A stretch of DNA of 64,000 bases from Sphingobacteriaceae bacterium (GTDB taxonomy: Bacteria; Bacillota; Sulfobacillia; Thermaerobacterales; RSA17). How positions within the stretch are numbered: the first letter of the stretch is position 1; every line of letters starts with the position of its first letter. The notes under the pieces were generated by a model. It was not told the origin of the DNA, searched no databases, and saw only the letters and a program-made list of their open reading frames with translations. The stretch spans positions 6,913-70,912 of the forward strand of contig DATGRI010000022.1 in the NCBI GenBank assembly GCA_035303785.1. Reading direction: 5' to 3'. Below, piece after piece: positions 22,590 to 27,909 of this stretch. Made by a program: the position numbers and the translations under genes.

Positions 22590-23903
22590 TTAGCTGCCCG
22601 CCTTGTCCACGTAGAACTGCTCTTCTTCCGTGGAGCCCCGCAGGGCCAGGGTGGAGCTTTCGCCGCCGGTGATGACCTGGGCCACCTCGTCGAAGTAGCC
22701 GGCCCCCACCTCCCGCTGGTGGCGGGTGGCGGTAAAGCCCAGTTCCTCCATGGCGAACTCCTTCTCCTGGAGCCGCACGTAGGCGGTCATGGCTTCCCGG
22801 GCGTAGCCGTGGGCCAGTTCGAACATGGAGGCGTTCAGAGCGTGGAAGCCTGCCAGGGTGACGAACTGGAACTTGTAGCCCATGGCCGCCAGCTCCTTCT
22901 GGAACTTAGCGATGGTGTCGTCGTCCAGGTGGAGCTTCCAGTTGAAGGAGGGCGAGCAGTTGTAAGCCAGCAACTTGCCGGGGTATTCCTTGTGGATGGC
23001 CTCGGCGAAGGCCCGGGCCTCATCCAGGTCGGGCGTGGCCGTCTCGCACCACAGCATGTCGGCGTAGGGCGCGTAGGCCAGGCCCCGCTTGATGGCCGCC
23101 TCGATGCCCGGCTTGACCCGGAAGAAGCCTTCCACGGTGCGCTCGCCCGTCAGGAACTCGTGGTCCCTGGGGTCGATGTCGCTGTTCAGCAGGTTGGCGC
23201 CCAGGGCGTCGGTCCTGGCCACGATGATGGTGGGCACGTCCAGGACGTCGGCCGCCAGGCGGGCCGCCTTCAGGGTGCGGATGTGCTGGGCGGTGGGCAC
23301 CAGCACCTTGCCGCCCATATGGCCGCACTTCTTCTCGGAGCCCAGCTGGTCCTCGTAGTGCACGGCGGCGGCGCCGGCCTGGATCATGGCCTTCATCAAC
23401 TCGTAGGCGTTGAGCACACCGCCGAAGCCGGCCTCGGCGTCGGCTACGATGGGGGCCATCCAGTGGATATCCGTGTTGCCCTCGGACCAATGGATCTGGT
23501 CGGCCCGGAGCAAGGCGTTGTTGATGCGGCGCACCAGGGCAGGGGCGCTGTTGGCCGGATACAAGGACTGGTCGGGATAGGTCTCCCCCGCCAGGTTGTT
23601 GTCAGCGGCCACCTGCCAGCCGCTGAGGTAGATGGCGGGCACGCCGGCCTTCACCATCTGCACCGCCTGGCCGCCCGTGAGGGCGCCCAGGGCCCGGACG
23701 TACTCCTCGGTGTGCAGTAGGTTCCAAAGCCGCTCGGCACCCATGCGCGCCAAGGTGTATTCGATCTTCACCGAACCCCGCAGGCGGATGACGTCCTCAG
23801 CGGAATAGTCCCGCTTGATCCCCTTCCACCGGGGATCGGTCTTCCATCGCTGTTCCAGCTCTGCTGCTTCCTGGCGCAGCCGTTGTTCGAAGTCTCCTGC
23901 CAT
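22590..23903 (-). CDS. aceA: Isocitrate lyase
   Basis: KKCGHMGGK signature, [29 protein letters not shown]. Confidence 0.98.
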
Positions 23904-23942
23904 ACTGAACTGGCCCCCTTGCTTTCCACTAATCTATGTTTA

Positions 23943-25535
23943 CTAATTAATCATCTCATAGGCGGGTAGTGTCAAGAACTCGATGAATTCCTCGCTCAAG
24001 GCCACCCGGTCGAACAGCTCGGCGGCGTCGTCAAAGCGGCCCTCGTTGAAGAATTCGTCGCCGTAGGCCTCCCGGATCTTCTCCATCTCCTCGGCCTTCA
24101 ACTGCTGCACCAAATCACGGGTGACGGTGCGGCCGTCGTCCATCTTAGCACTATGCCGGATCCACTGCCAAATCTGGGCCCGGCTGATCTCCGCCGTGGC
24201 CACGTCTTCCATCAGGTTGTAGATGGCGGCGGCGCCGGTGCCCCGCAGCCAGGAGGCGATGTACTGCAGGCCGACGGAAATGTTGTGGCGCAGGCCCTGC
24301 TCGGTGATCTTGCCGCCTTCGATGTGGGTGTTCAGCAGGTCGTCGGCGGTGACGTTCACATCGTCCCGCTGGCGGTCCACCTGGTTGACCTTGTCGCCCA
24401 GGTGCTCCTCGAAGACGCTGCGGGCCACCTCCACCAGGCCGGGGTGGGCCACCCAGGTGCCGTCGGAGCCGTCGTTCACCTCGCGGATCTTGTCCTTGCG
24501 CACCTCTTCCAGGGCCCGGGCGTTGACCTCGGGGTCGCGCCGGCTGGGAATGAAGGCCGACATGCCGCCGATGGCGTGGGCGCCCCGCCGGTGGCACGTC
24601 TTGACCAGCAGTTCGGTGTAGGCCCGCATGAAGGGCGACGTCATGGTGACCTGGCCCCGGTCGGGCAGGACAAATTCAGGATGGTTGCGGAACTTCTTGA
24701 TGACGCTGAAGATGTAGTCCCAGCGCCCGGCGTTCAGGCCGGCGATGTGGTCCCGCAGCTCGTAAAGAATCTCGTCCATCTCGAAAGCGGCCAGAATGGT
24801 CTCGATGAGCACCGTGGCCTTGATGGTCCCCACGGGGATGTTCAAGGCGTTCTGGGCGGCGACGAATACGTCGTTCCACAGGCGCGCTTCCCGATGGTTC
24901 TCCAGCTTGGGCAGGTAGAAATACGGGCCGGTGCCCCGCTCCAGCAAGGCGTGGACGTTGTGGAAGAAATACAGGCCGAAGTCGAAGATGCTGGCGGAAA
25001 TGGGCTTGCCGTCGACCCAGACGTTCTTTTCCACCAGGTGCCAGCCCCGGGGACGGACCAGCAGGGTGGCGATTTCTTCATTCAGCTTGTAAACCCGGCC
25101 GTCATCCTGCTCGAAGATGATGGTCCGCCGTACGGCGTCCTTCAGGTTCACCTGGCCTTCGGTGACGTTCTCCCACGTCGGGGAAAGGGCGTCCTCGAAG
25201 TCGGCCATGAACACGTTGGCCCCGGAGTTCAGGGCGTTGATCATCATTTTACGGTCCACGGGCCCGGTGATCTCCACAAAGCGATGCTGGAGATCGTCAG
25301 GTACAGGGGCCACCCGCCAGTCGCCCTCGCGAATGTGGCGGGTGCTTTCCAGGAAGTCCGGACGTTCGCCTGCGTCCAGGCGAGCCTGATATTCGGCCCG
25401 CCAGGCCAGCAGTTCTTCCCGGGTGGGGTTGAACTGCCGGTGCAGCTCTGCCACGAAAGCCAAAGCTTCCGGGGTCAGGATCTCTTCCGCAACCCGTCCC
25501 TGTACCGGCCCGCGGACCTCAATACCTTCACCCAT
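23943..25535 (-). CDS. aceB: Malate synthase A
   Basis: [48 protein letters not shown]. Confidence 0.98.
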
Positions 25536-25921: not shown

Positions 25922-27058
25922 TTGTCGTCCTACGAACTCAGTTTCCTGGACAGCACCTTCCGCATCGGGGAAGAGACCGGGCCGTACATCCGCCAAGGGT
26001 TGAACAGCGAAACAGCGCAAAAAATCGCGGAACTCATCCGGGAGATTGCCGCCGTTGATGCTGTGGCCGTGACCAACGACCGGACCATCCTCGGCTACGC
26101 CGGCACGGGTTGCCCCTACATGGTGCGGGGCCGGTCCATCCTGACGGCCGCCACCCGCCAGGCCATCCAGACGGGCCAGGCGCGGGTGGTCAATTCCAAG
26201 GAGGAACTGGCCTGCCCCATTCCGGGCTGCCCCTGCCCGCTGCAGGGTGCCGTCATCGCCCCTTTGAAGGTTCGCCAACAAGTGGTGGGAACCGTAAAGC
26301 TATATAGGACGGGTGAACAGGATTTTCCTGCCTTGGCAAGACGATTGGCCCTGGGAATAAGCCAGCTGCTGAGCCTGCAGCTGGAGGTGGGCGAATCGGA
26401 GCGGCTGCGGGAACTGGCCGCCAGGGCCCGGCTGGAGGCCCTCCAGGCCCAGATCCGCCCCCACTTCCTGTTCAACACCTTGAACACCGTGCTCATGTTC
26501 ACCCGCACCGACATCGAGCGGGCCCGGGAACTGCTGGTGCAGCTGGCTTCCTTCCTGCGCCGGGCCTTAACCGTTCGGGCCGAGTTCATCCCCGTGGAAG
26601 ACGAGCTGGAGTACGTGCAGACCTACCTGGAGATCGAAAAGGCCCGCTTCGGCCAGGCCTTGCGCTTCAAGGTGAGCATCGACCCCGCCTCCCTGGGCTG
26701 CCTGGTGCCGGTGCTCACCATCCAGCCCCTGGTGGAGAACGCCGTGGTCCACGGCCTGGTGCCCCAGGAGGGCGGCGGGCGCCTGCTGGTGCGCACCCGG
26801 GTGCGCCATGACCGGCTGGAAGTGGTGGTGTACGACACGGGGGTGGGCATCCCCCGCCATCGCCGGGATGGAGTGTTTACGCCGGGAGTGGGCAAAGGCA
26901 TGGGACTAGGCTTGGCCAACATCAACCAGCGGCTCATGGGCCTGTACGGTGAGCCGTACGGGCTGCGCCTCCTGAGCCGGCCCGGGCGGGGCACCTTGGC
27001 CCGCATGACGGTGCCGGTGCGCCGGGCCGCCGACCGGAGGGAGGCGGCAGGCCGGTGA
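25922..27058 (+). CDS. LytS-family sensor histidine kinase lacking the 5TM input domain (GAF + His_kinase + HATPase)
   Basis: LQAQIRPHFLFNTLN H-box, IQPLVENAVVHG, DTGVG, GLGLANI; begins directly at the GAF region; no hydrophobic segment. Confidence 0.92.
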   Translation: MSSYELSFLDSTFRIGEETGPYIRQGLNSETAQKIAELIREIAAVDAVAVTNDRTILGYAGTGCPYMVRGRSILTAATRQAIQTGQARVVNSKEELACPIPGCPCPLQGAVIAPLKVRQQVVGTVKLYRTGEQDFPALARRLALGISQLLSLQLEVGESERLRELAARARLEALQAQIRPHFLFNTLNTVLMFTRTDIERARELLVQLASFLRRALTVRAEFIPVEDELEYVQTYLEIEKARFGQALRFKVSIDPASLGCLVPVLTIQPLVENAVVHGLVPQEGGGRLLVRTRVRHDRLEVVVYDTGVGIPRHRRDGVFTPGVGKGMGLGLANINQRLMGLYGEPYGLRLLSRPGRGTLARMTVPVRRAADRREAAGR

Positions 27059-27909
27059 AGGACGGGCGGCGGGTTATCAGGGCCCTCATCGTCGATGACG
27101 AATACCCCGCCCGGGCGGAGCTGCGCTATCACCTGAGCCGCCACGACGACGTGGAGATCACCGGTGAGGCGGTCACCGCCCGGGAAGCCCTGCGCCTCAT
27201 CCGGGGGCTGGAATACGACGTGGTCTTTCTGGACATCGCCATGCCCGGCCTGTCGGGCATCGACCTGGCCAAGGAGATCCGGGAAGGGGCCCGGCCCCCC
27301 TGGATCGTCTTCGTCACCGCCTACGATGATTTTGCCGTCAAGGCCTTCGAAGCCCGGGCCTTGGACTACATTCTCAAGCCCATCACCGCCGAGCGGGTGG
27401 CCGAGGCCCTGGCCCGGGTCCGGGAGCGGCTGACGGTCCGGCTCCCCGGCGGCCCGGCGGAGGACGGCGCCGTCACTCCCCTGCCCCCAGGCCGCCGGGA
27501 CGGATCACCGCCGGAGTCTGGGGCTTCCGGCCCGGCCCCCAGAACCCAGTGGATCATGGGCATGCGGGATGAAACGGCCATCCCCATCCCCATTGCCGAT
27601 GTGGTCTACATTACCAGCGAGGACGACCAGGTCTTCGTTTACACCGTCGACCGGCGGTACCCCACCCGCTACACCCTGCGGGAGCTGGAACTCATGCTGC
27701 CCGGCAACGTCTTCTTCCGTTGCCACCGGGGCTACATCGTCAACTTGAATTTCGTCCGGGAAATAAGCCCCTTCTTCAACGGCACCTACAACCTGTCGGT
27801 GCCCTGGCGCGGGGGCACGGCCACCATCCCCGTGGCCAGGAGCCGGGTGGCGGAAATGAAGCGGGTTTTCTGGCCCGTCATGCCCCCGGATGCCTCCCGC
27901 CGGGCCTAG
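27055..27909 (+). CDS. LytTR family response regulator
   Basis: VDDE, FLDIAMPG, FVTAY, DYILKP receiver domain; FFRCHRGYIVN LytTR domain; GTGA overlap with the kinase. Confidence 0.95.
   Translation: MKDGRRVIRALIVDDEYPARAELRYHLSRHDDVEITGEAVTAREALRLIRGLEYDVVFLDIAMPGLSGIDLAKEIREGARPPWIVFVTAYDDFAVKAFEARALDYILKPITAERVAEALARVRERLTVRLPGGPAEDGAVTPLPPGRRDGSPPESGASGPAPRTQWIMGMRDETAIPIPIADVVYITSEDDQVFVYTVDRRYPTRYTLRELELMLPGNVFFRCHRGYIVNLNFVREISPFFNGTYNLSVPWRGGTATIPVARSRVAEMKRVFWPVMPPDASRRA

Follow-up and report, generated by a model that had tools for sequence, protein, structure and literature searches.

Organization of the locus

The window analysed here, a stretch of 64,000 nucleotides of contig DATGRI010000022.1 (assembly GCA_035303785.1; Bacillota, Thermaerobacterales), carries the genes of a histidine kinase and a response regulator of the LytS/LytTR type, which are oriented divergently to the glyoxylate-shunt genes aceB and aceA (Table 1). 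The kinase comprises only the cytoplasmic part of a LytS-type protein, displays four cysteines in its GAF domain where canonical LytS proteins carry an Asp-His-His and Cys-x4-Cys signature, and belongs to a group in which linkage to aceBA is found repeatedly. The source genome has a size of 1.64 Mb and is 98% complete; AceK was not found in it.

Table 1. Features of the locus; positions refer to the window.
Feature	Position	Strand	Evidence or remark
aceA, isocitrate lyase, 437 aa	22590-23903	-	NF011645, 786 bits (cut-off 562); Pfam ICL
aceB, malate synthase A, 530 aa from the ATG at 25535	23943-25535	-	TIGR01344, 822 bits (cut-off 594.5)
Divergent intergenic control region, 386 bp	25536-25921		between aceB and the kinase gene
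Conserved block CCAATGGAGGTTTTCCACCTGCCAGTCCCTAATAGTT	25680-25716		almost unchanged in L093 and L094, flanks diverge; may be an operator or an upstream promoter element of aceB
Four YACCYK copies, candidate LytTR sites	25695, 25718, 25734, 25754 (span 25695-25759)	+	about 20 nt apart
Soluble LytS-like histidine kinase, 378 aa	25922-27058	+	Pfam GAF, PF06580, HATPase_c
GTGCPY, kinase residues 61-66	26102-26119	+	Cys64 (26111-26113) in place of the canonical D-H-H
CPIPGCPC, kinase residues 98-105	26213-26236	+	Cys98, Cys103, Cys105, against C-x4-C alone in canonical LytS
LytTR response regulator, 284 aa	27055-27909	+	Pfam PF00072 and PF04397
Acidic ORF, 210 aa, family unassigned	27931-28563	+	22 nt past the regulator gene

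Located on the same strand with a gap of 39 bp, and with both products exceeding their equivalog cut-offs, aceB and aceA constitute an aceBA glyoxylate-shunt operon. A mechanical call of open reading frames (ORFs) places the start of aceB 12 codons further upstream, at 25571; the likely start is the ATG at 25535, which is preceded by the ribosome-binding site AAGGAGG and at which the alignments of homologs begin. An earlier note on this DNA, made from the sequence alone, gave the length of the intergenic gap as 385 bp, one less than follows from its coordinates.

The GTG start codon of the regulator gene overlaps the TGA stop codon of the kinase gene (GTGA). The regulator is composed of a receiver domain (residues 11-119, 79.8 bits), a Pro/Gly-rich linker and a LytTR domain (residues 176-271, 87.5 bits), and its phospho-acceptor Asp60 is situated in the motif FLDIAMP, with D14, D15 and D60 all being present. 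The top NCBIfam models, BtsR and LytR, both score under their cut-offs and the regulator is therefore an equivalog of neither. With this adjacent cognate LytTR regulator the kinase displays the gene pairing that characterizes the LytS family. The acidic ORF downstream (41 Asp and Glu versus 20 Lys and Arg) has no Pfam match and no transmembrane segment. A homolog with 65% identity follows the regulator gene on contig L093, and an unnamed 186-aa gene occupies the equivalent position on L094, so that the ORF is possibly the third gene of the kinase-regulator operon.

The kinase lacks a membrane domain

The kinase gene starts with a TTG codon, which is preceded by GGGAGGGGG. The encoded protein is made up of a GAF domain (residues 30-153), a His_kinase domain PF06580 (residues 169-246, 89 bits) and a HATPase_c domain PF02518 (residues 267-367, 47 bits). 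The phospho-acceptor His181 (26462-26464) lies within a PHFLFN-type motif of the dimerization and histidine phosphotransfer (DHp) domain, and the catalytic residues H181, N273 and D305-G307-G309 (DxGxG) are invariant across the compared homologs. With E. coli BtsS the kinase shares 32% identity over 369 residues, the aligned part of BtsS (residues 204-561) beginning directly after its membrane domain. The source genome encodes no other PF06580 kinase.

AlphaFold2 (AF2) modelling yielded a mean predicted local distance difference test (pLDDT) score of 86.9 for the whole kinase, and a pLDDT of 89.5 together with a predicted template-modelling score (pTM) of 0.85 for the GAF domain alone. The GAF model matches GAF domains of the Protein Data Bank (PDB) with template-modelling scores of 0.6-0.7, which confirms the fold. 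The closest solved structure to the kinase is the kinase domain of GanS, and PDB searches by sequence and by fold returned no solved structure for any LytS-family GAF domain.

According to the earlier note, the kinase begins at the GAF region and lacks a transmembrane segment. Both statements are borne out, since the highest 19-residue Kyte-Doolittle mean is only 1.59 and falls into the N-box of the ATPase domain, while the start is common to homologs at 66-82% identity (e.g. MSSYELNFLD). The note had further argued that no room is left upstream for a membrane domain of the five-transmembrane (5TM) LYT type; in agreement with this, the frame upstream of the TTG is hydrophilic and contains no earlier ATG, GTG or TTG. 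Finally, a separate membrane partner that restores a conventional LytS had been named as a finding that would speak against the proposal. A search for PF07694 (5TMR_LYT) found none, there being no match in the kinase or anywhere in the genome. A hidden membrane part, considered as a candidate, was rejected on the same grounds, namely the absence of PF07694 from the genome and the lack of hydrophobicity in the upstream frame. The longer kinase of database record P0001 (420 aa, beginning SAQGGTPP...) is an over-extended call of the same frame into the intergenic region, without a start codon.

An alignment to BtsS that begins exactly at the end of the membrane domain, at residue 204, would also fit a conventional LytS gene in decay whose 5' end has been lost. 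Such decay is nevertheless extremely improbable: start and length are the same in dozens of homologs from several families, all catalytic residues are invariant, the frame is free of stops and translationally coupled to the regulator gene, and the AF2 models are confident. The membrane-less kinase is a conserved state and not a truncation.

A ligand-swapped site in the GAF domain

From canonical LytS proteins (P0122-P0240, n = 100) and BtsS, the GAF signature G-x-G-x-D-H-H...C-x4/5-C was defined. Within the 100 canonical 5TM proteins G61, H66, H67 and the C-x4-C pair are found without exception (100/100 each) and D65 in 83; the GAF domain of E. coli BtsS (L109:17960-19645) reads GIGDDHH followed by C-x5-C. 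The statement of the earlier note that LytS proteins typically carry G.G.DHH thus holds. The window kinase does not conform to this signature. Compared with it, H66 and H67 are changed to Tyr and Met and C64 is gained, whereas the canonical Cys pair is kept and an extra Cys follows a 2-residue insertion. The two motifs reported earlier, GTGCPY and CPIPGCPC, were confirmed at residues 61-66 and 98-105 and contribute the four cysteines of the GAF domain; a fifth cysteine of the kinase, C260, is not conserved. In the AF2 models both Cys-bearing segments form confident loops between strands of the GAF fold.

Among the 120 best homologs C64 is present in 118, C98 in 119 and C103 in 117, while position 105 is occupied by Cys in 56 and His in 64 and by nothing else. 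Since C64, C98 and C103 are each retained in at least 117 of these 120 sequences, the cysteine pattern, as judged from the alignment, is not a product of chance. The pattern C...C-x4-C-x-(C/H) replaces DHH...C-x4/5-C in the subfamily.

These 120 homologs (47-82% identity) derive from Symbiobacterium, Caldinitratiruptor, Ammonifex, Desulfotomaculum and many uncultured Bacillota, and related loci occur also in Sulfobacillus and Thermaerobacter. In the databases they are named only 'histidine kinase' or 'LytS/YehU family'. By sequence, the window kinase is a member of this large and uncharacterised subfamily of Bacillota. None of the 120 possesses 5TMR_LYT (0/120). About 80 carry a hairpin of two hydrophobic helices at the N-terminus (2-TM forms), eight a 2Fe-2S ferredoxin domain PF00111 (P0015, P0016, P0017 at L106:6001-7449, P0018, P0023, P0025, P0056 and P0067), and in about 30 no additional element precedes the GAF domain. 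The ferredoxin fusions point to an electron or redox input in the subfamily.

The ligands vary with the architecture. His-His together with CxxxxC is found in all 5TM forms (101/101); the 2-TM forms mostly display Cys64, one remaining His and C-x4-C-x-His; the ferredoxin-fused forms display Cys64, one His and C-x4-C-x-Cys; and the membrane-less forms have four Cys and no His in 26 of 31 cases. An intermediate site was observed in a second paralog of Thermaerobacter marianensis (L091; G003:C1, about 514.8-516.1 kb), which has a 2-TM N-terminus and, with ARHHESC and C-x6-C-x-C, combines the His pair with the extra Cys. As read from these comparisons, the four-Cys site is a ligand-swapped version of the site in all LytS GAF domains, passing through His2Cys2, Cys3His and Cys4, and not a new insertion; the conserved LytS GAF signature accordingly looks like a four-ligand metal site whose ligands have been changed in the subfamily.

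It is very probable that the site binds some metal. His2Cys2, Cys3His and Cys4 are classical ligand sets of zinc, but the known ways of ligating a 2Fe-2S cluster, as in Rieske proteins, mitoNEET and ferredoxin, comprise the same three sets, so that an iron-sulfur (Fe-S) centre would fit as well. The free methionine-sulfoxide reductase, an enzyme that performs thiol chemistry with pocket cysteines, is among the structural matches of the GAF domain. Zinc, an Fe-S cluster and a thiol switch are each possible for the Cys4 site, and a cofactor that is Fe-S or otherwise redox-active is conceivable, with doubt outweighing confidence. Of the metal-, Fe-S- or redox-sensing variant proposed in the earlier note, the membrane-less state and the replacement of DHH by a Cys motif thus stand; the Fe-S or redox part is a hypothesis that the ligand sets fit no better than zinc.

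A sensing role of the site is favoured over a purely structural one because the change of ligands is coupled to the loss of the membrane input, and because a ferredoxin domain replaces the membrane part in some relatives. Against this it has to be considered that, all three ligand sets being typical of zinc, the site may serve a structural purpose alone. The system would then still control aceBA, but the signal would be a cytoplasmic metabolite bound by the GAF domain (such as pyruvate, glyoxylate, acetyl-CoA or acetyl phosphate) or would come from a partner protein. This alternative is in accordance with the occurrence of the site throughout the LytS kinases, in which the signal known so far (pyruvate in the case of BtsS) binds to the membrane domain, with the ability of GAF domains to bind small molecules (PMC5552118), and with the pyruvate and overflow carbon that LytS/LytTR systems characteristically handle. 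The neighbours of the subfamily, aceBA, PEPCK, FBA/PFK, ilvE and pntAB, likewise belong to central carbon metabolism. However, a structural zinc would not be expected to change its ligands in step with the loss of membrane input, nor does it explain the ferredoxin domain in place of the membrane part, and no residues of a ligand pocket could be identified. A structural zinc combined with a metabolite or partner signal is hence considered rather unlikely, and sensing by the four-Cys site is retained as the favoured reading.

Linkage to aceBA in other genomes

In a tree of the kinases the window kinase falls into a well-supported clade of eight. Divergent orientation of aceA and aceB to kinase and regulator is found in all five members with known surroundings, the linked contexts listed for the clade being the window, G001 (a different genus within the family) and the metagenome contigs L093, L094/L095, L096 and L097. 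On the other flank the clade varies, with prs, spoIID, or DUF2207 with LemA.

Comparable arrangements occur outside of the clade. In three species of family f20 aceA alone is divergent from a membrane-less four-Cys kinase, and in G152 two isochorismatase-family genes, the kinase and the regulator are divergent from aceB-aceA. The kinases of f20 and G152 fall into clades separate from that of the window kinase, suggesting that the linkage arose independently in at least two further lineages. In Candidatus Sysuimicrobium, a member of another phylum, PEPCK, kinase, regulator, a BpsA-like gene, a Cys-rich mini-protein and aceA follow each other; here the kinase is a distant relative on a long branch, the placement of which is unsure. 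The mini-protein of Ca. Sysuimicrobium calidum (L010:11040-11276; MEVCTMTRECACGR...) lies directly before the isocitrate lyase gene and downstream of the membrane-less kinase and regulator, an arrangement with no counterpart in the window.

Within the class the linkage of kinase and aceA is found in 6 of about 50 genomes holding both genes, corresponding to four genera and three independent lineages. By our own estimate, about 0.1 juxtapositions within 5 kb would be expected by chance across about 24 genera, whereas at least three independent ones are observed. The co-localisation with aceBA which the earlier note had suggested as a test is thus present in the window's clade and recurs independently, yet it is a minority state in the class.

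A different arrangement was observed in Ralstonia spp. (L060, L074, L078), where a PF06580 kinase, matching in the transmitter only, and a LytTR regulator are located 4-5 kb upstream of aceA. This may be another link between LytTR regulators and the glyoxylate shunt, or a coincidence.

The intergenic region

Alignment of the intergenic region with those of L093, L094 and L096 revealed conservation with L093 and L094 over the aceB-proximal part of about 230 bp, the kinase-proximal part being variable in length. The kinases of L093 and L094 are 80% and 79% identical to the window kinase (full-length alignment). Within the conserved part, the block at 25680-25716 stands out. It hints that the regulator may bind to 25536-25921, the region on which the earlier note had proposed to test its binding. 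The four YACCYK copies overlap this block and continue beyond it. They form the sole 70-nt stretch on the + strand of the window with at least four copies, a result of little weight since the motif was picked after inspection.

LytTR sites are usually imperfect direct repeats about 21 bp apart, situated upstream of the target promoter. Such a layout is displayed by the aceA-kinase intergenic region of family f20, where three direct repeats GGnCGGTs, spaced exactly 21 nt apart and conserved in three species, are flanked by a TATAAA that belongs to the aceA strand and by TGTACAAT in the orientation of the kinase gene.

Direct and inverted repeats in the intergenic region of the window are restricted to short two-copy matches. 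Rfam gave no match to the region at E-values up to 1, and a consensus scan of 25400-26050 detected neither sigma-70 promoters nor terminators. The motifs TTYACSG and RACGGT, read by eye, turned out not to be enriched. An operator shared with the unlinked aceA of Thermaerobacter was also rejected, the alignment being unconvincing and the phased repeats being matched by 10-17% of shuffles. At two Thermaerobacter loci (L110 and L111, 8 kb each) no malate synthase A is found within about 1.5-5 kb on either side of aceA, and AceA of this genus appears to have an N-terminal extension.

Proposed function of the system

The arrangement suggests a two-component system in which the cytoplasmic half of a LytS-type kinase (GAF, PF06580 DHp and ATPase domains) is paired with a LytTR regulator and which would report a cytoplasmic condition to the glyoxylate shunt. 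Since the kinase lacks a membrane input, the GAF domain would have to be the sensor. Its Asp-His-His and Cys-x4-Cys site, rebuilt into Cys64, Cys98, Cys103 and Cys105, may hold a metal or a small Fe-S cluster, the occupancy or redox state of which could report redox conditions, oxygen, iron or thiol stress and might set the balance between kinase and phosphatase activity on His181. The phosphorylated regulator would then act on the intergenic region and, in a direction that we infer rather than observe, control aceB-aceA and probably its own operon too. That the kinase-regulator pair regulates aceBA in this lineage is, taken by itself, probable; the whole chain, from the rebuilt Cys4 centre through the LytTR regulator to aceBA, is put forward tentatively, as a plausible model with somewhat more doubt than assurance attached to it.

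Several observations weigh against this model. In the sister genus Thermaerobacter a kinase of 72-74% identity that retains the Cys4 site faces a class-IV aminotransferase gene of the ilvE type in divergent orientation and lies about 440-500 kb away from aceA; the next outgroup is likewise unlinked, and most genomes of the class with both genes leave kinase and aceA apart. The G152 kinase, though linked to aceBA, lacks two of the cysteines. Elsewhere, members of the subfamily adjoin FBA/PFK, ppdK-dnaG-sigA, pntAB, or a short-chain dehydrogenase/reductase (SDR) gene with an iron-containing alcohol dehydrogenase (Fe-ADH) gene; the ferredoxin-fused kinase gene on L106, for instance, is divergent from that of a class-II fructose-bisphosphate aldolase (FBA), with PFK nearby. 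The neighbours of the subfamily therefore share a theme of central carbon and redox metabolism without a single conserved target. With regard to operators, the repeats of f20 are matched by about 3% of shuffles and its three species are not independent, and no triple repeat phased at 19-23 nt rises above noise in the intergenic region of the window. A small separate 2-TM protein might, in addition, conceivably serve as a partner of the kinase.

Taken further, these points could mean that the adjacency to aceBA has no regulatory meaning and that the regulator controls only its own operon, including the 210-aa acidic ORF, or distant genes. The missing linkage in Thermaerobacter, Symbiobacterium and most of the class, the heterogeneous contexts of the subfamily and the lack of a convincing LytTR repeat in the intergenic region of the window would all be in line with this. 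It is hard to reconcile, on the other hand, with the retention of divergent aceBA in all five clade members of known context while the other flank changes, with the further, independent cases (at least three) in which such a kinase lies next to aceA or aceBA, and with the conservation of the aceB-proximal intergenic sequence. An adjacency devoid of regulatory meaning is thus regarded as improbable, and control of aceBA by the kinase-regulator pair is preferred.

A more far-reaching idea, unlikely but of wide consequence, extends the Fe-S reading to the entire family. DHH...CxxxxC of all LytS/BtsS GAF domains and its Cys3His and Cys4 derivatives would then form a 2Fe-2S or another redox-active centre, by means of which the whole family would integrate a redox or iron signal from within the cell. 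The membrane-less Cys4 forms would represent pure cytoplasmic redox sensors that set the flux into the glyoxylate shunt and other nodes of central carbon metabolism in aerobic thermophilic Bacillota.

The GAF domain has been described as the best-conserved part of LytS/BtsS kinases, which might receive an intracellular stimulus as yet unknown (Behr et al. 2017; PMC5552118). A kinase made solely of the cytoplasmic part is a soluble, readily purified protein with which this stimulus could be sought, and the ligand-swapped metal-type site together with the ferredoxin-fused relatives adds to its value for this purpose. For the signature DHH...C-x4/5-C, on the other side, a model organism would permit a direct test. 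Should the link to aceBA prove regulatory, it would represent a route of glyoxylate-shunt control unlike IclR, AceK, RamB and ArcA, operating in a reduced-genome compost thermophile without AceK.

Comparison with known systems

BtsS/BtsR and YpdA/YpdB of E. coli and LytS/LytR of staphylococci and bacilli share with the system of the window the transmitter composed of GAF, PF06580 DHp and HATPase_c domains, the LytTR partner, and the theme of carbon-overflow metabolism. In contrast to BtsS, YpdA and LytS, the window kinase lacks 5TMR_LYT; its GAF domain displays C and C-x4-C-x-C in place of the DHH and C-x4/5-C of LytS/BtsS; and the presumed target beside it is aceBA instead of a pyruvate or peptide transporter or lrgAB. 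The papers on BtsS describe 5TMR_LYT as the characteristic feature of LytS-type kinases and as their pyruvate-binding part. Because this domain is absent, the window kinase, by its sequence, falls outside the literature definition of LytS proper, yet it shares the whole transmitter. In the literature searched, the GAF signature DHH...C-x4/5-C is not mentioned in the LytS/BtsS papers, and no study of membrane-less LytS-type kinases was found.

A mechanism resembling the one proposed here is known from the chloroplast sensor kinase CSK and its cyanobacterial counterpart Hik2 (CSK/Hik2), a soluble histidine kinase with an Fe-S cluster in its GAF domain, where a conserved Cys serves as ligand and the redox state sets the autokinase activity; the cluster is a 3Fe-4S cluster with a single identified Cys ligand (PMC6949291). 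CSK/Hik2 belongs to the HisKA family and the window kinase to PF06580, so that the two are likened by mechanism and not by GAF sequence. A similar mode of action might be seen in the staphylococcal kinases NreB and AirS and in FNR-type proteins. In these cytoplasmic sensors four cysteines hold a 4Fe-4S or 2Fe-2S cluster which reports oxygen or redox state. The sensor part is not homologous to that of the window kinase, NreB and AirS possessing a PAS-type sensor domain and NarL-type regulators.

The regulators so far known to act on the glyoxylate shunt (IclR, AceK, RamB, ArcAB and RegBA) control aceBA or isocitrate lyase (ICL) by carbon source or oxygen, and none of them is a LytTR protein. 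ArcA represses aceBAK. For RegBA of Brucella, two-component control of ICL activity is reported (PMC5435760). The literature search returned neither a link between LytTR regulators and isocitrate lyase nor a study of LytTR control of the glyoxylate shunt. Sequences of the homologs are already present in the databases, and the kinase of the window is a variant of the known LytS/LytTR system, in which the complete transmitter is combined with a soluble, four-cysteine GAF domain and a divergent aceBA operon.

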